Shown one piece after another: positions 257 through 28,180 of a stretch of 64,000 bases of DNA (positions are counted from its first letter, which is position 1; every line of letters begins with the position of its first letter). A program made the translations under genes and the position numbers. The notes under the pieces were generated by a model. The model was not told the DNA's origin, searched no databases, and was given only the letters and a program-made list of their open reading frames with translations. Source of the stretch: a virus (taxonomy: Duplodnaviria; Heunggongvirae; Uroviricota; Caudoviricetes); IMG/VR virus record IMGVR_UViG_3300035698_015309; one strand, written 5' to 3'.

Positions 257-343
257 AGGGTTTGTCCGTGAGGATTTCCACCCGATCTACCCCGTCAGCG
301 AAGTGCAACACCTGGATCCGGTCGATAGAAATGGTCTGACTCA

Positions 344-1360
344 TTACGCCTCCATCGCAGCCGTCAGGTATTCGATGAGCTTGTCCCGCCCCCAGGCGTG
401 GATCAGGGCATCGTCATTCCCGACCTCGTAGGTGACCTTGTCACGTTTCCCGAGCTTCCCGAAGACCGCCGTCTGCCGTTTCAGGGGGAAGCGGGTACCC
501 TTCCTCATGTGAATGGAATAGACCCGCTTACGGGGGCCGAGGAGATATCCGGTTTTGCCGTGGGTGAAGGTGAACCAAGGCTCCGTTTTGTTCGAATCCT
601 TCCAGTAGCAGTTCTGCGTTTCTTCCGGCTCGCTGAAGGCGTAGCCTTTACCCCGCAACTCATCGAAGACGCCCTTCCAGAACTCCAGGTTCTTGCGCCG
701 CCGAGGGTCTTCGGGGATGGGGATGTCCTTGGTCTCAGTGTGGCTGACGAGAGGACTCCAGGCGACGTTCTCACCGAGGCCGCTGACATAGAACCCGACC
801 CGCACGCTGAGACACTCGGGCACATGAGGCGGCAGGCGGGTGCCTGGGGAGAAGGGGCACGCCCTCTCCAGGTCACGCCAGCGGTCCCGGAACTTGTCCA
901 CCAGCTCTTGGTCCGTGGTCTCGGGGATCTTCGTCTCGGACACATCCTGCAGGAAGTTGACCCCGTTATGGCCCGCCGTCCGCTCCTCCTCGGGGAGGGC
1001 CTCCCACCCCACAGTAGTCCCGTGCGGGAAGCCCTGCTCGTCGCAGACGGCGTCCCAGGCGAAGGTCTTCGCCCAGTGCTTCGCAGCCGTGCTGTAACGG
1101 TCGTTCCGGTCAGCGATGTGGACGTTGAGGATCGTGTTCGCCCAGTCAAGCCCCTCCTGAGGGAACTCGGACAGGGGGAGCTTCGGGGTAAGGGACGCTG
1201 TGAGCAAATGGACAACCCCCGCATCTGCGATGGTCAGCACCGGACGCCCGCACTCCTCGCAGAAAAACCACTGGGAGGATCGATCTGGGCCGATGTGGGC
1301 ACCCCCGGATCGGTAGTTGAAGTGCCCGCAGGGACACAGGGGGAGGCTTGATTCCAGCAT
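344..1360 (-). CDS. hypothetical protein with N-terminal CxC...CxxC zinc-ribbon (338 aa)
   Basis: Long ORF, last gene of a minus-strand operon running 3221->344. No recognisable catalytic motif. Confidence 0.5.
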   Translation of the reverse strand: MLESSLPLCPCGHFNYRSGGAHIGPDRSSQWFFCEECGRPVLTIADAGVVHLLTASLTPKLPLSEFPQEGLDWANTILNVHIADRNDRYSTAAKHWAKTFAWDAVCDEQGFPHGTTVGWEALPEEERTAGHNGVNFLQDVSETKIPETTDQELVDKFRDRWRDLERACPFSPGTRLPPHVPECLSVRVGFYVSGLGENVAWSPLVSHTETKDIPIPEDPRRRKNLEFWKGVFDELRGKGYAFSEPEETQNCYWKDSNKTEPWFTFTHGKTGYLLGPRKRVYSIHMRKGTRFPLKRQTAVFGKLGKRDKVTYEVGNDDALIHAWGRDKLIEYLTAAMEA

Positions 1361-1363
1361 GGG

Positions 1364-1588
1364 TTATCCTCCAAAGTGGTGGGCGACCGAGAGCACAACG
1401 CCGATGGCGGCGAGGATGAACCCGCTTACCACGATCAGCATTGCGGTGAGGTGCTTGCCGAAGCCCTTCAGCACGTCGGCGCTGCTCATGTCCCGGTCGA
1501 TGCGGAAGTTCTTCTTGAAGTTCAGGACAGCGAAAACGAAACCGATAAACACGATGCTGAGGCCAGCAATGATCAGCGCAGTTCCCAT
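1364..1588 (-). CDS. small membrane protein (two TM helices)
   Basis: Internal Met start MGTALIIAGLSIVFIGF... hydrophobic segments. Tightly packed after the upstream gene. Confidence 0.4.
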   Translation of the reverse strand: MGTALIIAGLSIVFIGFVFAVLNFKKNFRIDRDMSSADVLKGFGKHLTAMLIVVSGFILAAIGVVLSVAHHFGG

Positions 1589-1598
1589 GACGTTCCTC

Positions 1599-1883
1599 CT
1601 AGAAGCGGACGGTGCAGCCCTTGGCCACCGCTCCGCAGCAAACGGTGAAATTGACCTTCTCGCCCGCAACGTTCATACCCGCCATCTTAAAGGCGGCGTC
1701 GTCCGACCCGGAGCAGCCTCCGAACCAGTGCGGGGAGAGCTGGTGTGTGCTGAGTACAGTCACGTCAGACATCCCCGAGGAGGTCGCCGCCTTGACGGCG
1801 TCATCCTCGCCCACCATGTAGCCGCAGCCACCCACAGCCAGCCCGAACGCCAGCAGACACAGGATCACCAAGATCTTCCTCAT
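1599..1883 (-). CDS. putative lipoprotein
   Basis: MRKILVILCLLAFGLAVGGCGY: signal peptide plus lipobox-like LAVGGC. Confidence 0.45.
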   Translation of the reverse strand: MRKILVILCLLAFGLAVGGCGYMVGEDDAVKAATSSGMSDVTVLSTHQLSPHWFGGCSGSDDAAFKMAGMNVAGEKVNFTVCCGAVAKGCTVRF

Positions 1884-1894
1884 CTCGTCCTCCT

Positions 1895-2206
1895 CTATGA
1901 GTGGAGACCAGCATCGCAGGGCTTTCCTGGTGCTGCTCCACAAATGTGACAGTAACAGCCCTCTTCCGAGGGCGGCTTCGTGTGATCGACCTCGCTATTG
2001 CAAGGCTGCTTGAACCGATTGACTCCGCAGTAGAGGCAGTACGTGTTCGTTTCCGGGTGGCTGATGGCCTCTAGCCTATACTCCAGGTGCTTCACCATCC
2101 GATGCAGGATGGCCTCGTTCCGGTAGCTCCTAATGTAAAGGAACAGGAACACGAAGAAACCCACCTCGAAAGCTATCATCACGATGCGGTGTACGGTGTC
2201 GTTCAT
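1895..2206 (-). CDS. membrane / Cys-rich (zinc-ribbon) small protein
   Basis: Start MNDTVHRIVMIAFEVGFFVF preceded by GGGGACGGG RBS. C-terminal CLYCG...CYCHICG. Confidence 0.4.
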   Translation of the reverse strand: MNDTVHRIVMIAFEVGFFVFLFLYIRSYRNEAILHRMVKHLEYRLEAISHPETNTYCLYCGVNRFKQPCNSEVDHTKPPSEEGCYCHICGAAPGKPCDAGLHS

Positions 2207-2901
2207 CCCGTCCCCTTCATTTCCAGTGTGTCCCACTCCGGGGGCATTTCCGGGTCGTCCACACACCAGACAGTGTCAAAATCCACACTTTCAGGGGTGC
2301 CAGGACCGTGGTCAGTCGGGATTTGCCATCCCAACAGCAAACCGTACCCTGTCCGTTCTGGGTAACCCTCAGGCCAAGGACTGAAGAAGTGGGGGCCTGT
2401 GGTCTCTGTCATTTGCCAAATGGAACCATCGGACAGGCGCACCTTGCAGACAACCCCGACGTTGACGTGCCTCAGCACATCCAAGCTGGCACAGGGATAT
2501 TCCTGGCACAGCGTTTCATAGTCCACAGGGGTGATCTGACACTCTATGAGAGTCCCATCGGCACACTCAGACTCAGGCCAGCCTATCTCCCCCTCAGCGT
2601 AAGCGTCTTGATCGACCTCCCCCCCGTACCACGGAGGGGTGATGTCTGCGGGGTCGATCTCCATGTTGTGATTCCTACTCACACAACAGGGCTTACCCTT
2701 GAGCTGCTGGAAGAGATTGTTCCACCTTTCGATGTTTTCCTGCCGCTGGGTGGCCCAAACAGGGGCTTTGTCGGCGTCAGCCTTAGCGTCAGCCTTGGCC
2801 TTAGCGTCAGCTTCGGCCTGTTCCCTTTGCAGCAGCGCAATCTGCTCTTCACAGGTCTTGATCAGGGACTGACACTCTCCGATGGTCTGGGGAGCCCTCA
2901 C
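2203..2901 (-). CDS. hypothetical protein with AKADAKADA low-complexity/coiled-coil N-terminus (232 aa)
   Basis: ORF with GTGA start/stop overlap with the upstream bL12-like gene. Confidence 0.45.
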   Translation of the reverse strand: MRAPQTIGECQSLIKTCEEQIALLQREQAEADAKAKADAKADADKAPVWATQRQENIERWNNLFQQLKGKPCCVSRNHNMEIDPADITPPWYGGEVDQDAYAEGEIGWPESECADGTLIECQITPVDYETLCQEYPCASLDVLRHVNVGVVCKVRLSDGSIWQMTETTGPHFFSPWPEGYPERTGYGLLLGWQIPTDHGPGTPESVDFDTVWCVDDPEMPPEWDTLEMKGTG

Positions 2902-3221
2902 TTGACGCTTCCCAGGGCGGCGTCAATACACTCCAACCCGAGGGCGAGGGTGTTGACCAGCCGGGTACCGAGGCGTGCGCTGACAGTCTCCAGGCGCATT
3001 AGGGCGTGCCTCATTTCCAGAGGCGGGTCGTAGGACACAAACGTGCTCCAAGCCTGCAACGCCCGAGCCACCTCGGTGGCCTTGTCCGGGTCCACGTCGA
3101 CCCAACCCCGCTCGGAGGCTTCCTTGGTCTCCTTGAGACCCATCTGTGTGGCCCCCCTGAGCGCCTTGATGAAGGGGAGCTTGGCATCGAACTTGAAATG
3201 GATACGGGTCTGGGTATTCAT
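2898..3221 (-). CDS. ribosomal protein bL12 (L7/L12) C-terminal-domain-like protein
   Basis: FDAKLPFIKALRGATQMGLKETKEASE...ALQ resembles the bL12 CTD (KAVRGATGLGLKEAKDLVE). GGAGG RBS. Minus-orientation GATCATC/GAGTAGAC motif upstream at 3262-3300. Confidence 0.55.
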   Translation of the reverse strand: MNTQTRIHFKFDAKLPFIKALRGATQMGLKETKEASERGWVDVDPDKATEVARALQAWSTFVSYDPPLEMRHALMRLETVSARLGTRLVNTLALGLECIDAALGSVK

Positions 3222-3263
3222 CGGGTACTCCTTCCCTTCGGGTCATTTGTCCCGTTACAAGGT

Positions 3264-3740
3264 CTACTCCGTGGCCGAGTCAGATGATCCCGTTTCGACT
3301 TTGACCATATAGCCATCCCGGATCTCCCACTGTGGATCCACGCAGAGACCCGCCACATGATCCTCTAAACAAAAATGACACAGGGGGGTTCGTCCGCAAA
3401 GATCACAGGACTCAAGAACACAACTGGGAGCCAGCAATTGGGAGCATTGGCAACACCGCTGCGGGGCACCTCTGTCAATGACGTCAGCAAGCTCTCGGAT
3501 CGAACAACCGCCCCAATGGCGACGTACCCACTTCCCCCAACCTGTCCGTTTGCTGGCTTTCTTATACAACTGACAGACATAAAAGCTGATCACCTGAGGC
3601 TGTTCTAGAGTGTCCCTGTACAAGGTAGCGAGAACATCGAACGCTTCCTCGCTGTCTGCTGCCCAGACGTAGCCAAGTACCCGAGGGTGTGCCTCTGCTG
3701 TTTGGTAAAAACCAGTCCAGAAGTTTGGTTTTTCAGGCAT
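3264..3740 (-). CDS. Cys-rich hypothetical protein
   Basis: Start MPEKPNFW. Minus-orientation motif at 3775-3810. Divergent from the HNH gene. Confidence 0.45.
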   Translation of the reverse strand: MPEKPNFWTGFYQTAEAHPRVLGYVWAADSEEAFDVLATLYRDTLEQPQVISFYVCQLYKKASKRTGWGKWVRRHWGGCSIRELADVIDRGAPQRCCQCSQLLAPSCVLESCDLCGRTPLCHFCLEDHVAGLCVDPQWEIRDGYMVKVETGSSDSATE

Positions 3741-3865
3741 GCTCGTGCTCCCACCCTGCAAAACGGTAACTCTCCACTCTGTCTACTCTGAAGCGTCCCC
3801 AGATGATCCCGGTGAAAGGCCTATAAAGGACGGAAGCTGTAAACCAGTCCGGGGAGGCTTAACAA

Positions 3866-5097
3866 TGGCCAAAAACAAACCACAAAGACACTCGTTAGTG
3901 GGGCAACGTTTTGGTAAACTCTTGGCCCTGGAGAGGATTCCCGAAGGGCAAACCAAATATCGCTGTCTATGTGACTGCGGGAAAGAAGTTACCGTTGCCA
4001 GAGGCAGCCTTCAGCAAGGCGTAACACGTAGTTGCGGCTGTCTTCGTTCCCCCGATCTCATAGGACAAAAATTCCATCGGTTAACAGTCCTGGCCCTAAC
4101 CCGAAAAATGAAACAGGGTCGGAAGTTGCCCCACTACATCTGTCGATGCGACTGCGGAAACGAGCACATCGTAGACAGAACCGACCTCACCAAAGGGCGA
4201 GTAAAAAGCTGTGGCTGCCTACGGGGGTCTCATTATGGTACTGCCCGACCCATATGCAAGGGAGATCATTTCGGACGGTTGACAGTAGTTGCACAGGCTG
4301 GGAAGGGGGAGCATCTTTGCAACTGCTCTTGCGGAGGAACAAAAATCGTCCCCTATGTCCGTTTGAGAGCAGGTTCCGTGCAAAGCTGTGGGTGCCTACG
4401 AGGTTCGCCCCTGCCTTGGGGACAGGCGGCGCAGAATGCTGTTTTTCTGAGGAATCGAAAAAACGCACAGCTAAGAGGGTTGTCCTTTACCTTGATCCGA
4501 AACGACACACTGCCTCTTTTCAAACAAAACTGCTACTACTGTGGTGCGCCCCCGACAATGATTTACAAACACCCCAGAGGAAACTGCATCTACAATGGAT
4601 TGGATCGGGTGGACAACACCGAGGGTTACACACCCTCAAACGTGGTGCCCTGCTGCTGGAAGTGCAATAGAGCCAAGAGAGAGGCAACTAGAGAAGACTT
4701 TCTGAACTGGGTGATGTTACTACATGACCCAATACCACCCATCTCTGCCTCAGGTCTGGCCCGTGTAGTGGTCACCCCCAAAGACAAACAAATTTACCGG
4801 AAATATCAAGGAGACGCTACTCGACGAGGCATCTCCTTTAGTCTTGATCTCACTCCTTTTGCAGCCCTGATTCAGTCCAACTGTGGGTACTGTGGAACAC
4901 CCCCTGCATCTCGGTACAGAAAACATGTTTACACAGGGATAGACCGAGTCGACAATGTTTTGGGCTATGCCGCAGATAACTGTGTGCCTGCCTGCATCAG
5001 GTGCAATCGGGCAAAGAACACCGATGAATTAGCTGACTTCCTGGCTTGGGCAAAACGGATCCAGACCTTTCAAACCACCGCAATTTCCACCAAATAG
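3866..5097 (+). CDS. HNH endonuclease-like protein: four N-terminal ~45-aa Cys-rich repeats (GxxFGxL..Y.C.CDCG...SCGCL) plus two C-terminal HNH motifs (DRVDN..GY...N..P.C..CNRAK)
   Basis: Start MAKNKPQRH after a GGGGAGG RBS. Tandem internal repeats visible in the translation. HNH signature occurs twice. Confidence 0.6.
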
Positions 5098-6617
5098 CGG
5101 AACACCTGAGCATCCTGGTTGAAGGTAACCAACTCGTCATGCACAAAGCCCCCCTGACTTTGTTTCCCGCAGGCAAAGATGAAGTCCTTAGTCGGCCACC
5201 CTGCCGGGCGATGCCTGTCCCAGCAAGCCGAGCCCCGTATGTCCGCTAACCCGAGGGCAACTTCCTGAAGGTACATGAAAGCATTGCGAGAGGCGTTGCC
5301 TGACCCGTAGTAGGCTCCTCTAGCGCTGGTGTAGTTCATCGACTTAAGTGCCCCATTCGTACCATCCGTAGGCGAACCCCCGACGAGCTTGTGTCCTGTG
5401 GCGTTCCAAGCGGGGGCGTGGTAAATGCCTCGTCCGAAGGCTGCTCCCGCCTTGTGGACACCCCGAGGAAGATTCTCAGGCATCAGGAGTCCCTGCTTGC
5501 TGATACCCAACAAGTTTTCGGTGCGTGTGCCATGCCACGCCATGATCCGTCCTGTTGCCCCCGGCTTTTTGGCGGTTTGAGTGGCATAGGTACTAAAGCG
5601 GCTGTCTGTACCGTTGCGTGTGAACTTGAACACCCTGGCAACCCGCAACACCGAACGGCCTCCTCGCCACCAGTTTTGATTCCGCTGTGACTGTGCCGTG
5701 TTGAAGATCTCCACGACTTTGCGGAAGTCCTGGGTGCTTGGTTCACAAATTTCAATGGAGCAGCCGAGGCCATCGTACCATATCTGTTCTTTGCCCGCTG
5801 TGCTGGACGTGTGTGCTGCAGCTTGAAACACCTCCTTGGTCAGGTGGGCATCCCGAAGAAGCTGGAGGAATTTGCGCTGTTCCTGCAACCGAGCATAGCT
5901 GGAGAGCACCACTAGATGCAGGTTGTCCTGCCCCCGCTGATCACGTCTGATCTCTCTCGGAACATTGGACATGAAACGGTTGGTCAGGTCAATGACCCCA
6001 TCTCGGGGCACACCCTTTACGAGGGGCAGCGTCTGTTCCCGGTTTCGGGAACTCTCCCGCCCGAACTCCTGTTCTAAGGTGGTCTCGATCTCATCGAGGA
6101 TGGAGCCTCCGATGTCTAATTGCCTATCTGATAAATTACCGATGGGGTTGTCCGCCGTTGCCCCGGCCTGAGCGGAAAGACCAGCCCGAACTACCCGACT
6201 CGTCTCGTTGTAGATGACGCTCAGAAGTTGCCCGACTTCGGGGTTAAGGGAAGAAGTTACGGGGGCGGGTGTTAAAGCGACGGGCACAGCCGTCCCATTG
6301 GCAGCGGCTTTATTCATCTCCTCTTGATCAGAACGAGTTTCCAGCCGGGTGTACCCTTTACGTTCCTTCCCCTGCACCTTTTTGGAAAGCAGCGACTGTG
6401 CCTGCCCCAAGCTGATGCCCCGTTTGCTGCCCTTGTCAGATCCGGCTTTGCCAGTCGGACCCCATCGACACTCGAAGTTCGCCATCCCCCCTCCGAGATC
6501 CTCCACCCACCCCTTCCAGAATTTGTTACTGCCGAGGGTCACACAGCCGGTCTTAGCCCCCGTCAAATCTGTGAAATTCAGGGTCACACTCTCAACAATT
6601 GTCCCGGCCATCGTCAA
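5070..6617 (-). CDS. WGR-domain + PARP-like ADP-ribosyltransferase catalytic domain protein (515 aa)
   Basis: N-terminal KFWKGWVE...FECRWGPTG (WGR). C-terminal AWHGTRTENLLGISKQGLLMP / GRGIYHA / YLQEVALG / HDELVTF align with the PARP1 H-G-S, GKGIYFA and YNEY catalytic blocks (H-Y-E). Minus-orientation motif plus hairpin upstream at 6645-6690. Confidence 0.8.
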   Translation of the reverse strand: MTMAGTIVESVTLNFTDLTGAKTGCVTLGSNKFWKGWVEDLGGGMANFECRWGPTGKAGSDKGSKRGISLGQAQSLLSKKVQGKERKGYTRLETRSDQEEMNKAAANGTAVPVALTPAPVTSSLNPEVGQLLSVIYNETSRVVRAGLSAQAGATADNPIGNLSDRQLDIGGSILDEIETTLEQEFGRESSRNREQTLPLVKGVPRDGVIDLTNRFMSNVPREIRRDQRGQDNLHLVVLSSYARLQEQRKFLQLLRDAHLTKEVFQAAAHTSSTAGKEQIWYDGLGCSIEICEPSTQDFRKVVEIFNTAQSQRNQNWWRGGRSVLRVARVFKFTRNGTDSRFSTYATQTAKKPGATGRIMAWHGTRTENLLGISKQGLLMPENLPRGVHKAGAAFGRGIYHAPAWNATGHKLVGGSPTDGTNGALKSMNYTSARGAYYGSGNASRNAFMYLQEVALGLADIRGSACWDRHRPAGWPTKDFIFACGKQSQGGFVHDELVTFNQDAQVFRYLVEIAVV

Positions 6618-6683
6618 TCCTCCTGGTGGGCGTCAGTGCCCCTCACCTTAACTACTCTGCAGGTTGCCCAGATGATCCCTGGA

Positions 6684-6938
6684 TTAATCCAGGAGCAGAT
6701 CCGCCAGGGTGCGGAGCCAACCGTGAACTGTGTCGAACCCAAAGGCGTGCCCCTCACCCCAGGCGACGTCAAACGCTCTGTCTGCCTTGGGGTGTCCCGT
6801 CAGTCCGACATCCCTCAGGGCGTCCTGCTTGAACAAGGTCTTGAGCCGAAAAGACTCATCCTGGTAAGCACGGAAGATGCTGGGGCTGCGTCGGAGTGTC
6901 AGAAAAGGCTTGTGGTTGATGTACTTGTCGAAATCCAT
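6684..6938 (-). CDS. hypothetical small protein
   Basis: Start MDFDKYINH after an AAAAAGGAG RBS. Full minus-orientation motif plus leader hairpin at 6950-7010. Confidence 0.35.
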   Translation of the reverse strand: MDFDKYINHKPFLTLRRSPSIFRAYQDESFRLKTLFKQDALRDVGLTGHPKADRAFDVAWGEGHAFGFDTVHGWLRTLADLLLD

Positions 6939-7180
6939 TGGGTGCTCCTTTTTCGGGGTCATTTGCCCCTCACCCTTGTCTACTCTGTGGGTCGGGGAGA
7001 TGATCCCTGAAAGTCAGAAGGCACAACCCCTCTTTCAAGGAGGTGCCGTTCAAGAGTGGCATAGTCCACATGAGGAAGGGGACGGCGGAACGCATCACGA
7101 ATACGCCTTCCCTCAGGTGTCCTGATAGGGATGTTTTGAAGGTTTGGCCCCTTTTTCCGGTCCCCTGTTTTTCCCATCAC

Positions 7181-7717
7181 CTAGTCCTTTTCGTTTTCCG
7201 GAAGAGCGTGAGCCGTGGCCCTACAAATGTCCCGCAGGATCCCTCGGAGCACTTTGGCTTTGTTGTCTGCTTGTAAGGCCCTGTTCAGGGCCTTTTCCTG
7301 TCGATCCTTTTCCTGTACCCTGTCTGCTGTGGCCTTTGCCCGAATTGCCCGCTTTTCCGCTGACCTTATAGCTTCCACCACTATTGTTAGCGCCACATCG
7401 AGTGGTTCAGAGGGAAAGGGAACAGCGCACTGGACATGCTCATAGTCCCAACCCTCGTACTCGTAACTTCCACGAGTAGTGAGCAACTCCAGAGCAGCCT
7501 CAGCGTCCCCTTCTGACGCCTTCTGCGCCAGTTCAAAATGTTTCCTTCTGGTCTCCCAAATCTTGAGGGACTGCCTGTCATTTTGCAGTGCTCTTAGGTA
7601 GGGGTTGTGCTGGGCGTCCACAGCGAATTCCAGAGAACGTGTTTGGAGGTCGGAACGGGTCTCCTCGGAAAGGCTCGAAGGCTCTGGCCCTGGGTCGGGG
7701 TCCTTGACAGTACCCAA
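7181..7717 (-). CDS. hypothetical protein. TTG start overlaps the LE palindrome of the adjacent tnpB element.
   Basis: 178-aa ORF. The 5' end coincides with GGGTCCTTGACAGTACCC, so the true start is uncertain. Confidence 0.35.
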   Translation of the reverse strand: MGTVKDPDPGPEPSSLSEETRSDLQTRSLEFAVDAQHNPYLRALQNDRQSLKIWETRRKHFELAQKASEGDAEAALELLTTRGSYEYEGWDYEHVQCAVPFPSEPLDVALTIVVEAIRSAEKRAIRAKATADRVQEKDRQEKALNRALQADNKAKVLRGILRDICRATAHALPENEKD

Positions 7718-9212
7718 TTTAGTTGCTAAAATCTAACTATTCCTGCTTGAAACAAGAAGCAGAGGTCAGTAAATGAAGTGTCGCATCTTCCGACTTCACA
7801 AGGACACCAACCGATCTAAGATCGATAAGTTGGAAGCCCTGCACAAAGCATATGTCAAGTACGTCCGTATCTGCGTACAGACGATGCTCAACCAGCAAAC
7901 CCTCAACCTCCCGAAAGCCGCCAAACAAACGTTCTTCCCACGGGCTACTGATCTTACGTCTCAAATCGAAAAGATCGCACGAGACCATGCAATTCAAATC
8001 GTAAGTGCTTGGGCCAAAGCTACTTACGCTCGTAAATTAAAGCCGACTATCACCAATCTCAAGCATGACGGTACCCTCACCGATCAGGACGCCAAAGCAC
8101 TCTGTGTCATCGGGTTGAAGTCCATCAGCAAGCCATGGGAGTTCATCACCCAAGACCATCTCGATGCTTATCACACCCTGTTGGACACCTACGGAGGCAA
8201 CAAGCCTATCGTAAGGGACAACCTACCCATGAGGTTGTCAGAAATGACGGCTCGATTGGAAGACACAACTAAAGCTCCTTTGGGGGGTTTTTGGCTGAGG
8301 GTGTCCTCGTTGGAAGCTCGGAAATCCGTCTGGTTGCCTCTTGTTGGGAATCCTTACATCCAGCAGGCTGATCAGGTTAACAAGGGGATATCAGCCCGTA
8401 AAACCAAGAAGGGGTTCTGGCGCTTTGAGGCAGTTAGCAAGGCTGAGTGGACCATTCCTGAAGCACAGGAAGATTGGCCTAAGTTGGGTGTGGATGTGGG
8501 CTTGAACGTGCTTGCAGCTACTTCAGATGGCGTGACCTATGGTGAACACGTCAAACCTAAGTTCGACAAGCTCTACGCTCGTGTCAGAAATCTCCGAGCA
8601 AACCGCCAACGACAGGACCTGAAGGACAACAGCCCAAAGTTGGATCACCTTGAAAGCAAGCTGAGTGGGTTGATCAAGACAGAAACGGGTCGTGTAGTAA
8701 ACACCCTTATCGTCCGCCATCCTGAGACAGTGTTCGTGGTCGAGGATCTCGACCTTCGAGGTTGCCGAGGCCAAAAGCGGTTTGCTTACAGGGCGTTACA
8801 GACCAACTTGGAGAGAAAAGCCCCAACAGAGAAGGTGAACCCGGCTTATACGTCGCAGGAGTGCCCCTCCTGCGGTTACATTCATCGAGGCAACCGAAGT
8901 TCAATAAGGTTCCATTGCCGCTCGTGCGGTAGGAAGGCTCACGCTGATTGGGTGGGAAGTTCTGGTGTGCTCAGACGTTCTGAAGACGAACACATCAAAG
9001 CTGGCGATCATCCAAGAGGTGTAAAACGAGTGCTAAGAGAGCGATTCCGTGTTAAACGGACCAGTTCCTTGGGATTCGGGCGGAAGGAGCAACCGTCATT
9101 CGAGCCCTTACCGTTGGGCCAGAGGCTTACTACCGTTGGATCAGAGTCATTTGGCAGCGGCACAGCTTCAAACTTGATGCCTGTTACATTCCAGCAGGTT
9201 TTAAGGAACGGT
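7697..9212 (+). mobile_element. tnpA-less tnpB element (IS607-derived): LE palindrome GGGTCCTTGACAGTACCC with TTGACA-17-TAAAAT, tnpB, RE ending GGAACGGT
   Basis: LE shared with mini-elements at 18449 and 36179(-). The sequence just upstream of the tnpB ATG matches the tnpA 3' end / tnpB junction of the IS607 copy at 50340-50376. RE identical to the other copies. Confidence 0.7.
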
Positions 9213-9281
9213 ACCAGTGTCCATCAGCGAACCGCCTGTTCACCACCTGGATCATTGCAGCCTGAGCCATCTCGTCCGTAG
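7773..9281 (+). CDS. tnpB: TnpB (RuvC-like RNA-guided nuclease). Stop codon lost (TAG->CAG in the RE hairpin) giving a ~23-aa read-through into the flank.
   Basis: RuvC-I LGVDVGLNV, RuvC-II VFVVEDLDL, YTSQECPSCG...CRSCG zinc finger, HAD RuvC-III. ~90% identical to the tnpB at 50373. Confidence 0.85.
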   Translation: MKCRIFRLHKDTNRSKIDKLEALHKAYVKYVRICVQTMLNQQTLNLPKAAKQTFFPRATDLTSQIEKIARDHAIQIVSAWAKATYARKLKPTITNLKHDGTLTDQDAKALCVIGLKSISKPWEFITQDHLDAYHTLLDTYGGNKPIVRDNLPMRLSEMTARLEDTTKAPLGGFWLRVSSLEARKSVWLPLVGNPYIQQADQVNKGISARKTKKGFWRFEAVSKAEWTIPEAQEDWPKLGVDVGLNVLAATSDGVTYGEHVKPKFDKLYARVRNLRANRQRQDLKDNSPKLDHLESKLSGLIKTETGRVVNTLIVRHPETVFVVEDLDLRGCRGQKRFAYRALQTNLERKAPTEKVNPAYTSQECPSCGYIHRGNRSSIRFHCRSCGRKAHADWVGSSGVLRRSEDEHIKAGDHPRGVKRVLRERFRVKRTSSLGFGRKEQPSFEPLPLGQRLTTVGSESFGSGTASNLMPVTFQQVLRNGTSVHQRTACSPPGSLQPEPSRP

Positions 9282-9371: not shown

Positions 9372-9534
9372 GTGTGTACCGACCAGCTTATTAAACTACC
9401 ACTCAGTCGGTGGAATTGAACCACACCTTGGCTTTATCAGAGCCACGCTCGAACACGAGCTACGACCTTGTAGTAGGACTGGCTACCTACATCTTCGGTT
9501 TATCAGACCGCTGTTCTAGCCGGTCGGTACACAC
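9372..9534 (-). other. structured element bounded by a perfect 13-bp inverted repeat (GTGTGTACCGACC / GGTCGGTACACAC), immediately downstream of a minus-orientation promoter motif (9535-9565)
   Basis: Internal hairpins GCTCG-TGTT-CGAGC and GGCT-CTGATAA-AGCC, a T-loop-like GTGG-TTCAATT-CCAC, and a duplicated CTGATAA. Confidence 0.3.
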
Positions 9535-9603
9535 TGTCTACTCAGAGAGGTTCCGAGATGATCCCTTTTGCTCGGTACGGTAGAGAAACACAGGAGGAAG
9601 ACC

Positions 9604-9982: not shown

Positions 9983-10004
9983 CTGTGTGTATAGGGGGGG
10001 ACAG

Positions 10005-12365
10005 ATGCCCAACTGGAACCGAATAGCCCACAGCGCCAGCAAAGTAACCGGCAAGGTCCAAACGATGGTGGAACATCTGTTGGGGGTTGAAGCGCTGACT
10101 CTCCGTTTCCTGGGCACCCACTTCCCACCCCAGCACGTCAGAGAGGTTTCTTTCGCCAGCCGGGGGCATGACATCGGCAAATACAGTCCCCTGTTCCCTG
10201 ATGTACTGAACGGGGTAGCCCGAGGGGTGCTGGATCATTCCTCACCTGGAGCCTGGGTTGCTTACGACCGAGGATCCCTCCTCGCTTCCCTGTTGATCGC
10301 CGGACACCATAGGGGTCTGCCGGATTTCTCACGCGTCTATTTGGGGTGTGTCCTACGCCCCTCTGCACAGCCGATGGGTAGCGGGACTCATCCTAACCCC
10401 GGTGTCTTCCATGTCTATCCGGGGCCAGCGAAAGACTTGTTGGTTCCCCTACGTGAGGATGGCATCGAGCTTCCTGAAATCAATATAAATGATGATGAGA
10501 CCTTCTTTTCTTTTTCTGAACTGGTGAAAGGCTGGCAGTTGTCCATTGCCAAGGGCTTGGATGTCCGAATGGCCTTTTCTGCGCTCGTTGACGCCGACTT
10601 CCTGGACACCGCCGAGCACTTCAAACCAGGGCGCACCTGTCCCAACCCCCCGTTGGACGCCGGTCTCGCCCTTGACGTTTTGAACAAATACATCGACGGC
10701 CTCAGTGCCAAGAGCAAACGCAGCGATGGTGCTTCCCCTGTGGTGCAACAGGAACGGGACCGTCTACGACAGGACTGCCTCAGAGCCGCCCAGGGGCCTC
10801 CAGGACGCATTTTGACCTGTACAGCCCCCACCGGTGTAGGCAAAACTCTAGCGCTGGTCTCGTTCGCCCTGGCGCACTGTCAGGCCCACCAACTTAAACG
10901 GGTGATCATCGCTGTACCCTACAAAAGCATCATTCAACAGACGGCGAAAACCCTGAAGGAGCTTTTCAAGGACCGGGCCTTCGGTCCCCACTTTGTGTTG
11001 GAGCATCACACGGACGCCACGCAGTGGGTCGAAGAGGAGGATCTCCAACAGGATGGTAGATCAAATGAGATTGACCGACGAGGGCTCACTGAAAACTGGG
11101 ATGCACCAATCATCCTCACCACGAACGTTCAACTATTGGAGTCCTTGTTTTCCAATCGGCCAGGGAGATGCCGGAAACTCCACAACATCCAGGACTGCGT
11201 GATCATTTTTGATGAGGGCCAGTCTTTGCCCAGCCACCTTATGCTCCCCACAATAGCAATGCTCGACCGACTCAGCCGTCAGTATCAGGTCACGGTGGTG
11301 TCTGCCACGGCCACCCAGCCTGCCTTCCAGAGCATCCTGCCTCAGGTAGAAACACTCGTGGGGGAACCGCTCCAGCCCTACGAGGAGATTGCCTCCGCCC
11401 CCGTAGCCTCGGCCAAGGCGATGGTCCGCAACAAGTTTCACTGGCCGCACAACGACGACGAGAGGTGGACCTGGGCGCAGTTGGCTGACCGGGTGTGTTC
11501 GGAAAGGATGTCAAACCTCGTGCTTCTCAACAGGAAGGACCATGCGGAAGCGGCCTGGAGGGAAATACAGACACGGTGGGGGGCGGATCGAGCTATCTAT
11601 TTGACTTCCAACCTGTGTCCAGCCCACCGGAAGGGGCTACTCAAAGAGGTGGTTCGTCGGTTGAAGACCGTTGGGGACTACTTCGTTCTGGCAGCTACTC
11701 CTTGTGTGAACTCAGGGACGGACTTCGACTTCAACAGGGGCTTCCCGGCCATGGGACCGTTGGATGGGACGGCACAAACCGCTGGGCGGGTAAACCGGGA
11801 GGGCTTGCGGGTACTAGGGGACATCTTCGTTTTCCGCCCGGACGTTGAATACAAGGACATGTTCCCGCATGACGAGTGGTTCCAGGCTGCTGCCCGGATC
11901 ACGGAGCGGTTCCTCCGGCGCTACGGACAACGTCTCGACCCGACGAACCCGGAAATCTTGACCCAGTACTATGAGGCCCTCTATCGGGAAGCAGGGCTAG
12001 ATCACCCGGCCACCAAAAAGATCATCGAGGCGTACCAGGAGGGTTCCTTCGAGAAGGTCAGTCGACGCTACCGGGTCATTCCCGACAAAGGGGTCCAGGT
12101 CGTCGTTCCCTACCTGGAAGGAGGGTGTGGGGAGCAGTACAGGAAACTCAACAAGGAGCGGCCCACCCGGAAAAGCTTCCGGATGTGGATGAACCGAGCG
12201 GCCCTGCTATCGGTCTCTGTTCTGTCACTGAAGAAGGATCACCCCCTCTGGCTCAGCCTTGACCCCGTCACGCTGAAAAGGAAGGACGGCTCCATCACCG
12301 AAACGGGCTGGTACATCTGCACTGACCCAAGAGCCTACCACCCGGAACTTGGGCTGGTGCAATGA
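10005..12365 (+). CDS. cas3: Cas3 (HD nuclease + SF2 helicase)
   Basis: HD motifs (HDIGKYSPLF, IAGHHRG). Walker A CTAPTGVGKT. DEAD-like IFDEGQS. Start ATG 10005 after a GGGGGGG RBS; the listed GTG at 9987 lies inside the promoter motif. Confidence 0.9.
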   Translation: MPNWNRIAHSASKVTGKVQTMVEHLLGVEALTLRFLGTHFPPQHVREVSFASRGHDIGKYSPLFPDVLNGVARGVLDHSSPGAWVAYDRGSLLASLLIAGHHRGLPDFSRVYLGCVLRPSAQPMGSGTHPNPGVFHVYPGPAKDLLVPLREDGIELPEININDDETFFSFSELVKGWQLSIAKGLDVRMAFSALVDADFLDTAEHFKPGRTCPNPPLDAGLALDVLNKYIDGLSAKSKRSDGASPVVQQERDRLRQDCLRAAQGPPGRILTCTAPTGVGKTLALVSFALAHCQAHQLKRVIIAVPYKSIIQQTAKTLKELFKDRAFGPHFVLEHHTDATQWVEEEDLQQDGRSNEIDRRGLTENWDAPIILTTNVQLLESLFSNRPGRCRKLHNIQDCVIIFDEGQSLPSHLMLPTIAMLDRLSRQYQVTVVSATATQPAFQSILPQVETLVGEPLQPYEEIASAPVASAKAMVRNKFHWPHNDDERWTWAQLADRVCSERMSNLVLLNRKDHAEAAWREIQTRWGADRAIYLTSNLCPAHRKGLLKEVVRRLKTVGDYFVLAATPCVNSGTDFDFNRGFPAMGPLDGTAQTAGRVNREGLRVLGDIFVFRPDVEYKDMFPHDEWFQAAARITERFLRRYGQRLDPTNPEILTQYYEALYREAGLDHPATKKIIEAYQEGSFEKVSRRYRVIPDKGVQVVVPYLEGGCGEQYRKLNKERPTRKSFRMWMNRAALLSVSVLSLKKDHPLWLSLDPVTLKRKDGSITETGWYICTDPRAYHPELGLVQ

Positions 12366-12459
12366 AAAAGTCTGCGGACAGGGGTTCCTTTTGCGACTTC
12401 ATTGAGTAGTAAGAAGTGCCGCCGAAGAAACTCGGCTGGATAAACAGACGGAGGGACAG

Positions 12460-13131
12460 ATGAAAAAAGGTATGCTGCACGGGTTGGAAGTGTGGGGGGA
12501 CAATGCCTGCTTCTCCCGCCCAGAGGTGACGGAGCGGACCACCTACCCCATCCCAACCCACTCAGCCTGTCGGGGGATCTTCGACGCTATCTACTGGAAA
12601 AGGTCCGCCAACTTCTACTGGCAGATCGTCGGGGTAGAGGTTGTGAACCCGATCCGGTACATGGGGATCATGCGGAACGAGATGAAAGACAAGGTCACCC
12701 GCCGCACTCTTCAGGTTGATCTTACAACCCAGAAGCACCGGACCCAAAAGCACACCAGGACTCTCCTGGACCCCCGGTACCGCATCTTCGCACGGGCGGT
12801 CTGCCGGAATCCTGATGGGAACACCAACGCCATCGACGCCCAATTCCGTCGTCGGGCGGAGAGGGGCCAATGTTTCCACCAGCCCTTCTTAGGTTGCAAG
12901 GAGTTTATGGCCAACTTCCAGCTTGTCCCGGTGGATGAGCATGATCCATCACAGGGACTCGCAGACCTTCAGGTGGACGTGGGGGTGATGGTCTACGACA
13001 CCTTCAATCTGCTGGTGCCCGATGGAGATCCTTCGGTCAGCGTGTTCCACGCACAGATCAAGGATGGGGCCGTGGCCTACCCGGAGTTCACTGATAGTGC
13101 CGCCGTGTTCCGGCCAGGGGGTGCAGCATGA
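12460..13131 (+). CDS. cas5: Cas5c (Cas5d) type I-C pre-crRNA endoribonuclease subunit
   Basis: 223 aa directly after cas3. GLEVWGDNACFSRPE...YWKR resembles Cas5d N-terminal blocks. ATGA overlap with cas8c. Confidence 0.8.
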   Translation: MKKGMLHGLEVWGDNACFSRPEVTERTTYPIPTHSACRGIFDAIYWKRSANFYWQIVGVEVVNPIRYMGIMRNEMKDKVTRRTLQVDLTTQKHRTQKHTRTLLDPRYRIFARAVCRNPDGNTNAIDAQFRRRAERGQCFHQPFLGCKEFMANFQLVPVDEHDPSQGLADLQVDVGVMVYDTFNLLVPDGDPSVSVFHAQIKDGAVAYPEFTDSAAVFRPGGAA

Positions 13132-14960
13132 GTGGTATCGGACAGAGCCTCCTCAACTATGCCGCACACTATATGCCCCAGCAGGCTCCGGTGGGGTACG
13201 AGTACCTGACCGTCGTGGAAACCGTAGTGTGCCTGACCCCGGACGGGAAGTACCAGGACTGTCACCTCAGGGACACCAAGACGGCCTCCCCGATCCTGAC
13301 ACCTCGGGTGCCCTCCAATTTGCTCAGGGCCACGCCCCCCAAGACTCACTTCTTCATCGGGTATGTCCCCCAGGTGTTCCCTCTCCTCGTGGCCGAACCG
13401 CACGACAACACCAAGAACGAGGTGAAGAGGGGCCTCTTCCTGGAGCAGATCAGAACGGTCATCAAGGAGGTTCCCTGCACTCGGAAGTACCTGACCCCCA
13501 TCCAGACCTTCCTGGAGGACGACGAGCAGGTCGCCCTTGTGGTTCAGGCTCTGACGAAGATGGAGGCAGACCTCAAGCGGGCTGTGATCTTCCAGACCGA
13601 GGGGAAGAAACTCGGCATCCCGTTCCAGGACAAGAAGGAATGGCGGGAGTGGTGGGCGACCTACCTTTCAGGAGCGGACAAAAAGAAGAAGACCAGCGAT
13701 AAGACGTTCCGCTGCGTCGTCACCGGGGACGAGATCACGAACCCCTGCCGCATCCATCCTGACGGCATTGCCTTCGGCACAACGAAGACGAAGCTGGTTG
13801 CCGCCAAGCAGACCTCCAGTCACCACTATGGCCAGGAGTCTGGCCTCGTTGCTCCGATGTCAGACCAGACGGCGAGCACAATGACCCAGGCTCTGGTTCA
13901 TGCCGCCCAAAACGCCGGGACGGCCTTTGGGGATCTTCGAATCCTTGTGTGGGCTTGTTCCAGGGGAGAAACCCTTACGGGGAAGGCTGGACTGCTGGCG
14001 GGCCAAGGGCCGGTTCTTGAAGGGGGCGAGTGGACCCAGATCCTGTCCGACGTTATGTCCGACCTCTTGAACTCGGGATTGACGGATGGGGAACTCCGGG
14101 GTGCCACCCGGAAGGTGAAGGAATACCTGGACACGGGCACCGGACCGGGAGGTGTCCTAGACATGGACTGCACCTTGGGCATCGTTTCTAGCAACGGTCC
14201 CCGGTTGGCTGTCCGGCACTGGGAGACTGGACCCCTGTCCGTCCTGTTCAAGAACATCTATCGATGGTATCAGGATATGACCATCAGCAACAACCGCAAT
14301 GACACGGGGATCGCCCGCCTTTCTGCACTCTGGCAGATCCTTTCCGCTGTCAACGGCCCAAGGGGCAAAGCTTCCGAACTGGAGCGTGAGATGCTCGTTC
14401 AGGTAGCCCTGCGGGGCCAGTCGGTCCCAATGAGCATTGTCAAAAAGGCCCTGGTGCAGTTCCGGTCACAGTTGCACCTGTCCATCAAACCGTCAACCAA
14501 CATGGGGATCGCTCCGGCATTGCCGGGAATCCTCAAAACCTTCATCAACAGGAGAGGGAACACCATGTGTGAAGCAGGATTGAACAAGGACCACCCGAGT
14601 GTGGCGTACCAGTGTGGGCGGTTGTTGTCCGTCCTGTCCGAACTCCAGAGCCTCGCCATCGGTGGGAGGAACCCCCCGATGGCCCTGGCTGCTCAGTTCT
14701 CGTCCGCAACGATGCAGAACCCGGCCCGTGCGCTGGCCCGGTTACTGCTCCGTTCCGAGAAGCACGTCAACAAGCTCGTCCGACAGGGAAAGGGATGGGC
14801 GGATCACAAACGGCAGGAGATCGTCGACCGCCTGCCCACAGACCTTCCGACCCGCCTCGGCATCGAGGATCAAGCTTTGTTTGCCATGGGGTTGCTCCAC
14901 CAGCGCTCGTCCTGGAAGAAGCAGGACAAGCCCGCAGGGACACCCCCGATTAAGGCATAG
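13128..14960 (+). CDS. cas8c: Cas8c (Csd1) large subunit
   Basis: 610 aa between cas5 and cas7 in canonical I-C order. Size typical. No closer motif recognised by eye. Confidence 0.75.
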   Translation: MSGIGQSLLNYAAHYMPQQAPVGYEYLTVVETVVCLTPDGKYQDCHLRDTKTASPILTPRVPSNLLRATPPKTHFFIGYVPQVFPLLVAEPHDNTKNEVKRGLFLEQIRTVIKEVPCTRKYLTPIQTFLEDDEQVALVVQALTKMEADLKRAVIFQTEGKKLGIPFQDKKEWREWWATYLSGADKKKKTSDKTFRCVVTGDEITNPCRIHPDGIAFGTTKTKLVAAKQTSSHHYGQESGLVAPMSDQTASTMTQALVHAAQNAGTAFGDLRILVWACSRGETLTGKAGLLAGQGPVLEGGEWTQILSDVMSDLLNSGLTDGELRGATRKVKEYLDTGTGPGGVLDMDCTLGIVSSNGPRLAVRHWETGPLSVLFKNIYRWYQDMTISNNRNDTGIARLSALWQILSAVNGPRGKASELEREMLVQVALRGQSVPMSIVKKALVQFRSQLHLSIKPSTNMGIAPALPGILKTFINRRGNTMCEAGLNKDHPSVAYQCGRLLSVLSELQSLAIGGRNPPMALAAQFSSATMQNPARALARLLLRSEKHVNKLVRQGKGWADHKRQEIVDRLPTDLPTRLGIEDQALFAMGLLHQRSSWKKQDKPAGTPPIKA

Positions 14961-15020
14961 TCTCTAATGGCCTAAGGTGGGCCTTAGAGTTGGATTAGGC
15001 ATAAAGTGAGGAGAAGTATC

Positions 15021-16031
15021 ATGAAGGATCTTTTGATGTGGCTGAAGAGTGGGACGGCGGCAATCGGATACAGGTTCGAGATCTTGTTCCTGTTCGATTG
15101 TCTGATGGGGAATCCCAACGGTGACCCCGACTTCGGCAACCTGCCCCGGACCATCCCGGACACGGGACACGGGTTCGTCACCGACGTCGCCATCAAGCGG
15201 CGTCTCCGCAACTACGTGAGTCTCCGCAAGGCAGGCAAGACCCCGTACCAGATTTTGCTGATGATGAACACCTGTACCAACAGGCTCATCGCCAAGGCCC
15301 ACGAGGACTCCCACGGGACCGTCCCGGCGAAGGCTACCAAGCAGGAGGAGCGGGCGGCGGGTGACCGGATGTGCCAGGACTATTGGGATGTCCGCACCTT
15401 CGGCGGTGTTCTCAACACAGGTGCCAAGGCGGGCCAGATTCGTGGACCCGTCCAGGTGGTGAGTGCCCGGTCCCTCGATCCGGTATCCATCCAGGAGATC
15501 ACCATCACCCGCATGACCGACACCAAGGGCTCCCCTGATCCCAAGAAGGTCAAGACCCCCAAGGATCAGGGTTTCTCCTCCGCCCAGTGGCAGGAGTATG
15601 AGGACGGGGCCGAGGCGGCGGCTCTCCGCACGATGGGAACCAAGGCGATCATCCCCTACGGTCTCTTCGCTGCCAACATCACGGTGAGCGCTTTCGTGGC
15701 GGAACAGACGGGCTTCTCGGCGGAGGATCTGGCCCTGATGATCGAGGGTCTGGAAAACATGTACGACCATGATCGGACCTCCAGCAAGGGTTTGATGACC
15801 TGTCGGGGCATCTACATCTTCAAGCACGTCGGGACGGCGGACGACCCCGAAGAGCGGGCACAGCAGGCCAAGCTCGGGTGCGCCCCGGCCCATAAGCTGC
15901 TGGACAACGGACGCATCGTGACTGTGGTCAAAAAGGACGGGGTAGAGGCCCCGATGTCCTTCGACGACTACACTGTCACCGTGGACGAGTCCAAGCTCCC
16001 GGAAGGTGTCGAGTTCCGGGCCATCCAGTAA
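15021..16031 (+). CDS. cas7: Cas7c (Csd2) backbone subunit
   Basis: MGNPNGDPDFGNLPR signature near the N-terminus. AGGAG RBS before ATG 15021. Last cas gene before the leader and array. Confidence 0.85.
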   Translation: MKDLLMWLKSGTAAIGYRFEILFLFDCLMGNPNGDPDFGNLPRTIPDTGHGFVTDVAIKRRLRNYVSLRKAGKTPYQILLMMNTCTNRLIAKAHEDSHGTVPAKATKQEERAAGDRMCQDYWDVRTFGGVLNTGAKAGQIRGPVQVVSARSLDPVSIQEITITRMTDTKGSPDPKKVKTPKDQGFSSAQWQEYEDGAEAAALRTMGTKAIIPYGLFAANITVSAFVAEQTGFSAEDLALMIEGLENMYDHDRTSSKGLMTCRGIYIFKHVGTADDPEERAQQAKLGCAPAHKLLDNGRIVTVVKKDGVEAPMSFDDYTVTVDESKLPEGVEFRAIQ

Positions 16032-16227
16032 GGCCCTTTGCGAGCGGTTCCGTGGCGACGAAAACCCCGGAGTCGCTCGCAACCCAGAAAACCCCGTGAT
16101 CTGGGGTCGTTATACCGCAGCCGTTCTTTGATAACCGAACCAAACGGCTTGAAAAGTGACGGTTGGGAAGGACCGCTCGCAAAGGGGGCGGGAAAGCTGC
16201 GTCCCACAACGGTTTGCGAGGGGCACT

Positions 16228-17418
16228 GTCGCATCCTCTAACAAAGGATGCGTGGATTGAAACAGAGAGTACGTGCAGGCGTCCAGCGGGCTCAAGCCAA
16301 CGGAAAGTCGCATCCTCTAACAAAGGATGCGTGGATTGAAACGTTACTGCCCGCATGACACCCCGGATGAGATCACCAGTCGCATCCTCTAACAAAGGAT
16401 GCGTGGATTGAAACACTGTGGACCTGGCGGGGAAGAAGCCGACCTATGGTGGTGTCGCATCCTCTAACAAAGGATGCGTGGATTGAAACTTTCAAACAGC
16501 GACCCAGTCGAGTGCGACTTGGTGGGTGTCGCATCCTCTAACAAAGGATGCGTGGATTGAAACAAGTGCCTCGCCGTCAAGGATCCAGAGGGGAAGCTGA
16601 AGTCGCATCCTCTAACAAAGGATGCGTGGATTGAAACAGGCCCACAGAACGGCTCCCACGGCCTGGGGACGCCGTGTCGCATCCTCTAACAAAGGATGCG
16701 TGGATTGAAACGCTCAGAGGACTGCTCGACGGGACAAGACGGTCTTCCTCGTCGCATCCTCTAACAAAGGATGCGTGGATTGAAACTCGAAGTTGGGCGA
16801 AATCCAGGAATGACGGTCACAAGTCGCATCCTCTAACAAAGGATGCGTGGATTGAAACAATCCGATGACACTTCCCTTTCCTGTCCGCCCTTGGAGCGTC
16901 GCATCCTCTAACAAAGGGTGCGTGGATTGAAACGAGATCCCCCTTGCGACTCCCGCCCTGAAGGCGCTGGCGAAGTCGCATCCTCTAACAAAGGGTGCGT
17001 GGATTGAAACGTAAGCGAACTCCACCCCTGGTCCGTGGGTGACCGGTCGCATCCTCTAACAAAGGGTGCGTGGATTGAAACGCAGTGAGCCAGCGCCCCA
17101 CGAGCCATGCCTGCCTTACTGTCGCATCCTCTGAAAAAAGGATGCGTGGATTGAAACTAAATCCGATTTACGGGGAACTGGCTGGTCGGCTCACGTCGCA
17201 TCCTCTAACAAGGGGTGCGTGGATTGAAACGCTGATTCGGACTGATCCCTGAGAAGGCGCAACCCTGCCGTCGTACCATCTAACAAGGGGATGCGTGGAT
17301 TGAAACGAAACCGCAGCGAGGCAGAAGGGGTCACTCCCTCACGGGTGTGTGGATTGAAACATTAGGGTAGTAAGTGTAGACAACCTCGTCGTTCCCATGA
17401 GGGGGCGTGGATTGAAAC
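16228..17418 (+). CRISPR. Type I-C CRISPR array: 15 well-conserved 36-37-nt repeats (GTCGCATCCTCTAACAAAGGATGCGTGGATTGAAAC) plus 2 degenerate terminal repeats. Spacers 35-43 nt. Leader at 16035-16227.
   Basis: Repeat starts 16228, 16307, 16379, 16454, 16528, 16602, 16676, 16751, 16823, 16898, 16975, 17046, 17121, 17195, 17270; degenerate ends at 17360 and 17418. Distal repeats carry GGATGC->GGGTGC/GGGGTGC variants. Repeat ends in the I-C-typical GTGGATTGAAAC. Confidence 0.95.
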
Positions 17419-17501
17419 ATCGGTGATCCAGTTATACTCCCGATCCAGGCACGCCCCTTCCCCTAGAACGGAGTAGACAAGGGGCCTGAAAGGAGGTTCA
17501 A

Positions 17502-20315: not shown

Positions 20316-20542
20316 CATCGTTTCATTCTCCTCAGGGGTCATTTGCCCCTCACTTACTCTACTCAGCGGGGTCAGCAGATGATCCCATTGCACGTAAGGA
20401 TCTAAGGAAGGTGTGTCCGAAACGGCCCTTGAGCAAAGACCCCCAGAACTTTTGTTGATCATCTCAGATTCCGTTGGAGTAGTGTGGGTAGCCTGAGGAA
20501 GGCTCACTAACATCGGGGTGGACCCCCGAGAAGGAGAATGGG

Positions 20543-28094: not shown

Positions 28095-28180
28095 GAGCAC
28101 GACAAAAAGGGATCATCTCACCGACCTGCTGAGTAGTTAAAGTGAGGGGGCAAATGACCCCTGACAAGGAGACCAACGCA

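Follow-up and report, generated by a model that had tools for sequence, protein, structure and literature searches.

The window analyzed here, a 64,000-nt stretch of viral DNA, carries on its minus strand an uninterrupted open reading frame for a PARP-family protein (5070–6617; 515 aa counted from a TTG codon). The initial annotation had delimited the gene in this way. The open frame and all of the motifs quoted for it are indeed present in the translation, but the start lies at ATG 6611 rather than at 6617. Read in the direction of the gene, the sequence 5′ of it is AGGAGGATTGACGATGGCC, with AGGAGG (6619–6624, minus strand) separated from ATG 6611 by a 7-nt spacer into which the TTG falls, and we therefore assign this canonical Shine–Dalgarno element to the ATG. 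The resulting CDS (5070–6611, minus strand; stop codon TGA at 5070–5072) encodes 513 aa, and its product is identical to a database protein (P0001). Residues are numbered throughout by the 515-aa scheme, counted from the TTG at 6617. Neither an intrinsic terminator nor a sigma-70 promoter was detected for the gene.

The protein has three domains, all encoded on the minus strand. An N-terminal WGR domain (6342–6587; residues 11–92) scored 31.3 bits against a Pfam cut-off of 22. It is joined by a variable linker (6267–6326; residues 98–117; pLDDT <50), corresponding to gap-rich, poorly conserved alignment columns, to a PARP regulatory or helical domain (HD; PARP_reg, PF02877; 5805–6254; residues 122–271), which scored 40.2 bits against a cut-off of 26.8. 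The ADP-ribosyltransferase (ART) catalytic domain follows (5073–5732; residues 296–515). Here the Pfam match extends from residue 296 to 401 (49.2 bits versus a cut-off of 26.7) and reaches only halfway through the profile. Thus, the WGR and catalytic domains recognized earlier both exceed the Pfam gathering scores, but the regulatory domain between them had been missed. The protein also matches PHROG 23333; it matches no PADLOC family and no NCBIfam model. By sequence, the best matches among solved structures were PARP1, then PARP2, PARP4 and PARP3, and a family profile aligned to the PARP1 WGR-HD-ART chain 4dqy_C over residues 26 to 409.

To locate the catalytic residues, we used a family alignment of 43 sequences with 51–75% identity to the query. 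The profile of this family aligned by hhalign to human PARP1 662–1014 with a probability of 99.5%; the motif numbering of the PARP1 reference used (H862, Y896, K903, Y907, E988) and its overlap with the PDB alignments agree. His362 (codon 5532–5534), Tyr399 (5421–5423) and Glu495 (5133–5135) correspond to PARP1 H862, Y896 and E988, and each is conserved in 43/43 sequences, in line with the H-Y-E triad initially proposed. Further matches in the ART pocket are G363 to G863, K425 to K903, S426 to S904, N428 to N906 and Y429 to Y907. All of these pocket residues are likewise found in 43/43 sequences, except S426 (41/43). Structure prediction, which had been suggested as a check, gave the same picture. 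An AlphaFold2 model built from the 43-sequence alignment reached a pLDDT of 85.3 and a pTM of 0.80, with disorder confined to the N-terminal tip and the 98–117 linker. DNA-break-bound PARP1 and PARP2 took the top Foldseek ranks (E = 1.6e-23), with target TM scores of 0.73–0.74 for 4opx_C and 4dqy_C, and PARP4, a mono-transferase, was the best structural match for the HD-ART part. Since the predicted structure matches PARP1 and PARP2, the C-terminal half adopts an ART fold despite the loss of sequence-profile signal, and a non-ART fold, the outcome that would have contradicted the annotation, was not obtained.

These results bear on whether the protein might be a dead pseudo-PARP with a solely DNA-binding or regulatory function. 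The half-length Pfam match would fit such a protein, as would the occurrence of WGR domains in bacterial transcription factors too (PMC7824862). Yet the triad and the nicotinamide-pocket residues are invariant, and the model shows a complete ART fold at high confidence, making a dead enzyme very improbable. Across the clade, strong purifying selection is evident; the three domains are arranged and folded as in PARP1, the H-Y-E triad and the NAD pocket do not vary, and the core leucines of the HD are conserved (see below). Judged from its sequence, the protein is probably a genuine, active PARP1/2-like enzyme composed of WGR, autoinhibitory HD and ART domains.

The regulatory parts of the protein are conserved as well. 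HD residues L174, L251, L254 and D256 correspond to PARP1 L713, L765, L768 and D770, with little or no variation among the 43 sequences. We take these PARP1 residues to be HD core positions whose mutation renders the enzyme DNA-independent. For PARP2 and PARP3, an equivalent result with two HD leucines has been described (PMC5966428). In the WGR domain, W52-G53-P54 aligns with PARP1 W589-G590-R591. Trp52 is kept in 42/43 family members, and two cysteines, C25 and C50, are invariant. The arginine position, by contrast, is occupied by S (22 sequences), P (11), A (7), T (2) or E (1), and by R in none of the 43. W589, which stacks on the 5′ end of the DNA, is the main WGR–DNA contact, while the triad arginine contacts Zn1 in PARP1 and the second DNA or nucleosome in PARP2 (PMC8150716); neither R591 nor W589 is treated in an NAR review (PMC6486540). 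Among bacterial PARPs, the highest co-evolution scores fall on G and R of this motif (PMC5966428). Because R is absent here, ligand recognition may differ from that of PARP1–3.

Comparison with human PARP1–3 reveals other differences. The phage protein shares with PARP2, PARP3 and the C-terminal module of PARP1 the WGR-HD-ART order and the H-Y-E triad, yet identity is only 18–24%. It has no N-terminal extension, its HD is ∼17 residues longer than that of PARP1, its acceptor-loop region is shorter, and the position of PARP1 Y986 is occupied by His. A conserved, clade-specific insertion of 19 residues (404–422, WNATGHKLVGGSPTDGTNG; ...WNAT...TDGTNG) follows the Tyr399 strand of the ART domain. 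The altered WGR domain, with two invariant cysteines and without the arginine, and the ART insertion may together confer a different nucleic-acid ligand or acceptor, such as DNA ends. To our knowledge, HPF1, XRCC1 and histones do not exist in bacteria, the hosts of the PARP-carrying phage. Polymer synthesis requires an H-Y-E triad but is not guaranteed by it, PARP3 and PARP4 being mono-transferases.

Two bacterial enzymes, HaPARP of Herpetosiphon aurantiacus and CdPARP of Clostridioides difficile, have the same WGR-PARP_reg-PARP_cat arrangement and H-Y-E triad as the phage protein. Both make PAR in vitro, and HaPARP does so in a DNA-dependent manner (PMC5966428, PMC8120803). Their organisms also encode PARG and MacroD, whereas neither was found near the phage PARP gene. 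Virus-encoded H-Y-[EDQ] ARTs, as here, are known from jumbo phages and giant viruses, including Xanthomonas phage XacN1 (BBA65562.1), Klebsiella phage vB_KpM_FBKp34 and Bodo saltans virus, and proteins of this group gave the top structural matches in BFVD. Surveys have already recorded PARPs in jumbo phages (PMC7824862, PMC9503650), and a proposed phage repair scheme pairs phage PARPs with an NAD-dependent ligase (PMC11662467). With an H-Y-E ART encoded in a genome of 528,260 bp, the present protein falls within the jumbo-phage PART/PARP group (H-Y-[EDQ] ART, genome >200 kb). It nonetheless shows no more than 23–29% identity to any phage record in GenBank/INPHARED and forms part of a tight clade of its own.

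The most firmly established precedent for a phage-encoded enzyme of this kind is provided by ARTs with which phages modify the host machinery, and Iyer et al. proposed such a role for jumbo-phage PARPs (PMC7824862). The protein could accordingly be a host-takeover effector, its WGR and HD serving only to tether the enzyme to DNA or the nucleoid. Two related loci, L008 and L010, encode near the PARP gene an extra short protein with a PARP catalytic domain only, suggestive of a wider ART toolkit; there is no such second PARP-domain gene in the window. On the other hand, the phage PARP is an H-Y-E enzyme, unlike the T4 ARTs Alt, ModA and ModB, which have an R-S-E motif. Moreover, strict conservation of an autoinhibitory HD and its core leucines points to activity that is ligand-gated rather than constitutive. 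We regard a takeover function as unlikely, though more credible than a dead enzyme.

The gene had been placed on a mobile element. Its carrier is instead a complete huge-phage genome: the exact PARP protein is encoded on JGI contig 3300025697 Ga0208769_1000001 (528,260 bp; contig position = window position + 323,798), which has TerL and a major capsid protein. According to CheckV, this contig from Ace Lake, Antarctica, is the longest viral contig of IMG/VR with direct terminal repeats (DTR, complete); both structural genes were confirmed by HHpred, and the genome was placed in the huge-phage clades described by Al-Shayeb et al. (PMC8116208). The two papers on the Ace Lake genome cover CRISPR-Cas, or terminase and capsid genes; PARP and ADP-ribosylation go unmentioned in both, as in the main text of Al-Shayeb et al. 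The content of the window is phage-like, with many small unannotated ORFs, HNH and ligase PHROGs, the anti-Pycsar gene Apyc1, RNase H and three TnpB-like genes.

Close relatives of the protein are confined largely to similar contigs. A word-indexed search returned 267 homologues; the 120 listed show 51–74% identity, nearly all have the three Pfam domains, and many are carried on contigs of 280–536 kb. An exhaustive search of 1.84 billion representatives gave 467 matches at E ≤ 1e-3 and 9 at E ≤ 1e-30, and the three full-length 50%-identity representatives were 66%, 45% and 44% identical to the query, beyond which identity fell to ∼30%. In IMG/VR, close relatives occur on viral contigs of 536, 315 and 30 kb. 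Two scans of GTDB (185,579 species genomes) produced a single close relative, on a 27.6-kb contig in the MAG of an uncultured bacterium. With no other close relative among these species genomes, a bacterial chromosomal origin is unsupported. Deposited phage genomes (GenBank/INPHARED) yielded by tblastn relatives at 23–29% identity only, some of which carry the annotation poly(ADP-ribose) polymerase, and megablast with 24 kb from the window matched none of 50,697 phage records. The clade, which comprises more than 120 clusters, thus appears to be distinct, strongly conserved and specific to huge phages, occurring almost exclusively on phage contigs of 200–540 kb.

To see which neighbors accompany the gene, every ORF in the window was compared by tblastn with 18 related loci. 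Recurring genes were an HNH gene, a NAD-dependent DNA ligase (LigA) module, TnpB and a GmrSD-like gene. None of these is consistently adjacent, and no conserved operon partner of the PARP gene was found among the 18 loci. The HNH gene (3739–5097, plus strand; the gene caller places its start at 3865) converges on the PARP gene and overlaps its 3′ end by 28 nt. Several HNH endonucleases had been described nearby; HNH modules are present, but they are two modules of this single convergent ORF rather than separate genes. In L015–L019, an HNH gene occupies the same position beside a different PARP (565 aa), one with a true W-G-R. The HNH gene probably encodes a homing endonuclease and moves together with PARP genes.

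The LigA module (28142–31734, plus strand), interrupted by an intein and an endonuclease ORF, lies 23 kb from the PARP gene in the window. It sits immediately upstream of the PARP gene in L010, a relative of 436 kb, and is within 10 kb in L011 and L024, and partly so in L009. LigA can be viewed as a candidate functional partner of the PARP. No gene for PARG, a macrodomain protein, ARH, Nudix or NAD salvage was found with precomputed Pfam matches covering nearly all of the 64-kb window and 5 kb beyond its start, nor in ∼10 kb on either side of the PARP gene in L008, L009 and L010. The earlier remark that no PARG-like partner was recognizable therefore holds for both regions. The window and the relatives' flanks likewise showed no PAR reader.

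A CRISPR locus had also been reported beside the PARP gene, and we find type I-C cas3, cas5d, csd1 and cas7 (9987–16031) with a CRISPR array at ∼16.2–17.3 kb. This adjacency is seen in the present genome only. Since the relatives' PARP genes have no cas genes nearby, the adjacency lends no support to a CRISPR-linked role for the PARP, and we set this reading aside. Genes of biological conflict are abundant in the window, comprising anti-Pycsar Apyc1, the GmrSD-like gene and CRISPR-Cas.

Such surroundings would suit an enzyme for counter-defence, which, like DNA-damage signaling, had been hypothesized at the outset. It could bind phage DNA ends cut by host nucleases and ADP-ribosylate either the terminal phosphates or the nuclease, blocking exonucleases until the ends are ligated; in a variant, it would act against competing phages whose DNA has been cleaved by the type I-C Cas3 of the phage itself. 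There is precedent for the chemistry: DNA ADP-ribosylation by PARP2 and by plant PARP1/2, in the plant case on terminal phosphates, is described in two reports (PMC7726343, PMC8190142). Against end protection of this kind, adjacency to CRISPR-Cas is not kept in relatives, no PADLOC family matches and there is no conserved partner gene. We consider it improbable, slightly more so than a role in host takeover.

Upstream of the PARP gene lies a promoter-like motif, GGGATCATCT-N11-AGAGTAG-NN-AAGG (6646–6679, minus strand), 34 nt long and 34 nt from the PARP start. The window contains 14 copies of this motif, versus 0 expected. All but one (13/14) precede a called, same-strand start codon by 15–38 nt, and copies are found ahead of the PARP gene, both LigA pieces and other genes. 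L011, the closest relative, has 12 copies of a slightly shorter motif, one of them at the same position 5′ of its PARP gene; none occurs in more distant relatives. The motif may be a lineage-specific promoter, in which case the PARP gene and LigA would belong to one expression class.

Our favored interpretation, which we hold to be reasonably probable, is that the gene, equipped with its own promoter-like element, encodes an NAD+ ADP-ribosyltransferase of the PARP family, catalytically competent and under allosteric control, that would mark breaks in conjunction with the phage LigA. The enzyme of this lytic-type 528-kb huge phage has a minimal, PARP2/PARP3-like WGR-HD-ART layout, and in the resting state its NAD+ site would be blocked by the HD. 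During infection, the WGR domain, through conserved Trp52, would bind at a nick or nucleic-acid end that has arisen in the DNA of the phage (or host), lifting HD autoinhibition. The active enzyme would then ADP-ribosylate, with mono- or poly(ADP-ribose), itself, nearby proteins and/or the DNA end. Breaks could arise from the phage's own HNH, TnpB and Cas3 nucleases and from host restriction, and the modification would mark or protect them in a very large genome, PARP and LigA acting in one NAD+-dependent program of DNA metabolism. Break sensing or end marking in the phage's own NAD+-dependent DNA metabolism is most plausibly the role of the protein. Several points run counter to this interpretation: the WGR arginine is never Arg in the clade, no eraser or PAR reader was seen in the window or the relatives' flanks, the PARP gene has no conserved operon partner, and the link to LigA may simply be inherited synteny. 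The searchable literature yielded no experimental work on any phage PARP.

A broader proposal, doubtful at present, is that a clade of 200- to 540-kb phages vertically keeps a self-contained PARP break response consisting of a ligand-gated PARP and the phage NAD-dependent ligase. If so, such a response, operating inside bacteria, would be the viral counterpart of eukaryotic single-strand-break signaling and perhaps related to it by evolution. PARP1–3-type enzymes are central to DNA-break signaling in eukaryotes, and we know of only two bacterial PARPs that have been assayed. The phage family is abundant, strongly conserved and complete, with sensor, autoinhibitory and catalytic domains, and is carried with the phages' own NAD-dependent ligase; it is therefore a good candidate for testing PARP function in a prokaryotic virus. 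The kind of system is not new, and the annotation follows from standard profile searches. Phage PARPs are already on record, and the present gene is a well-supported additional member of this known kind. Its clade deviates in lacking the WGR arginine and in having an insertion in the ART domain. Variation at the arginine position could inform how WGR domains read DNA ends.

The arginine that gives the WGR domain its name (residue 54; the W589-G590-R591 triad of PARP1 corresponds to W52-G53-P54 here) is never present in the clade of the window's PARP, where serine, proline, alanine, threonine or glutamate occupies this position. Cysteines C25 and C50 of the same domain are invariant in this clade (residues 25, 50 and 54 are encoded within 6456–6545). 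One possible reading of the missing arginine and the invariant cysteine pair is that this domain binds its ligand in another way; a disulfide or metal site with a structural role is another. Two relatives, L008 and the 436-kb L010, also encode a second, short protein with only the PARP catalytic domain and H-Y-E-like motifs (L008, 17628–18533, 301 aa; L010, 16264–16944, 226 aa), 5–6 kb away from the gene for the three-domain PARP. The window has no counterpart of this short protein.

A two-module HNH endonuclease gene (3739–5097, plus strand) converges on the PARP gene and overlaps its 3′ end by 28 nt. Its counterpart in the related locus L018 (10357–11664, minus strand) overlaps the PARP gene there by 40 nt. 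Such convergent overlap is seen in several phage lineages, with the PARP-bearing loci L005, L008 and L011 listed besides these two; one lineage with a convergent HNH gene shows just ∼33% identity in the PARP catalytic region. The HNH gene resembles a homing endonuclease gene, one that accompanies PARP genes or targets them.

The NAD-dependent DNA ligase gene is ‘fractured’ (28142–31734, plus strand throughout). In the product of the first ORF (28142–28816), LigA domain Ia, up to and including the KxDG motif (..VMDKLDGIS), is followed by an intein N-half (CFDGATPL..); the second (28740–29837) encodes an MTES_1575/DUF559-like endonuclease; and the product of the third (29869–31734) opens with 36 IntC-like residues, the last of them GILAHN|C, before LigA resumes. 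These three ORFs occupy different frames, an arrangement that suggests a split intein whose homing endonuclease is free-standing. An identical layout is found in L010 (6173–9664).

The motif GGGATCATCT-N11-AGAGTAG-NN-AAGG occurs 14 times in the window, versus 0 expected. Five copies are on the minus strand (3777–3810, 6646–6679, 6974–7007, 9532–9565 and 20353–20386) and nine on the plus strand (at 23051, 23705, 24319, 27639, 28109, 29810, 32970, 54413 and 56291), and for 13 of the 14 a called start codon follows on the same strand, 15–38 nt downstream. In L011, the closest relative, a slightly shorter form occurs 12 times; more distant relatives have none. This promoter-like motif may be recognized by a phage-encoded sigma factor, and in relatives L009 and L010 the PARP gene has sigma-70-like genes nearby.

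Full TnpB-like genes are present at 7773–9281, 39637–41067 and 50373–51797, with a serine resolvase accompanying the last one (IS607-like). A 257-nt repeat (1–257, 8957–9213 and 18547–18803; 84–93% identity) represents the 3′-terminal part of TnpB-like genes; two such copies flank the mostly minus-strand PARP block (∼340–7720). A 63-nt repeat (7698–7760 and 18449–18511) holds a near-consensus sigma-70 promoter (TTGACA-17-TAAAAT).

Type I-C genes cas3-cas5d-csd1(cas8c)-cas7 are followed directly by a CRISPR array (9987–17420 in all) of ∼16 36-nt repeats (GTCGCATCCTCTAACAAAGGATGCGTGGATTGAAAC), with degenerate repeats onward to 17420. No cas4, cas1 or cas2 was found locally, an absence already published for this Ace Lake phage (PMC7416419). 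Other conflict genes encode a GmrSD_N-like protein (19731–20513, minus strand), which also matches the PADLOC NsnA and PD-T4-2_A models, and an anti-Pycsar Apyc1-type metallo-beta-lactamase-fold protein (37929–38696, plus strand; precomputed Pfam match).

Single units resembling the CRISPR repeat also occur well away from the array, at 38705–38740 and 63522–63557. The former (30/36 identity) immediately follows the Apyc1 gene. A further solitary unit, at 18781–18816, abuts the end of a truncated TnpB-type element and is therefore repeat-like in its 3′ part only (24/36 across all 36 nt, exact over GTGGATTGAAAC); here the element may have inserted into a CRISPR repeat.
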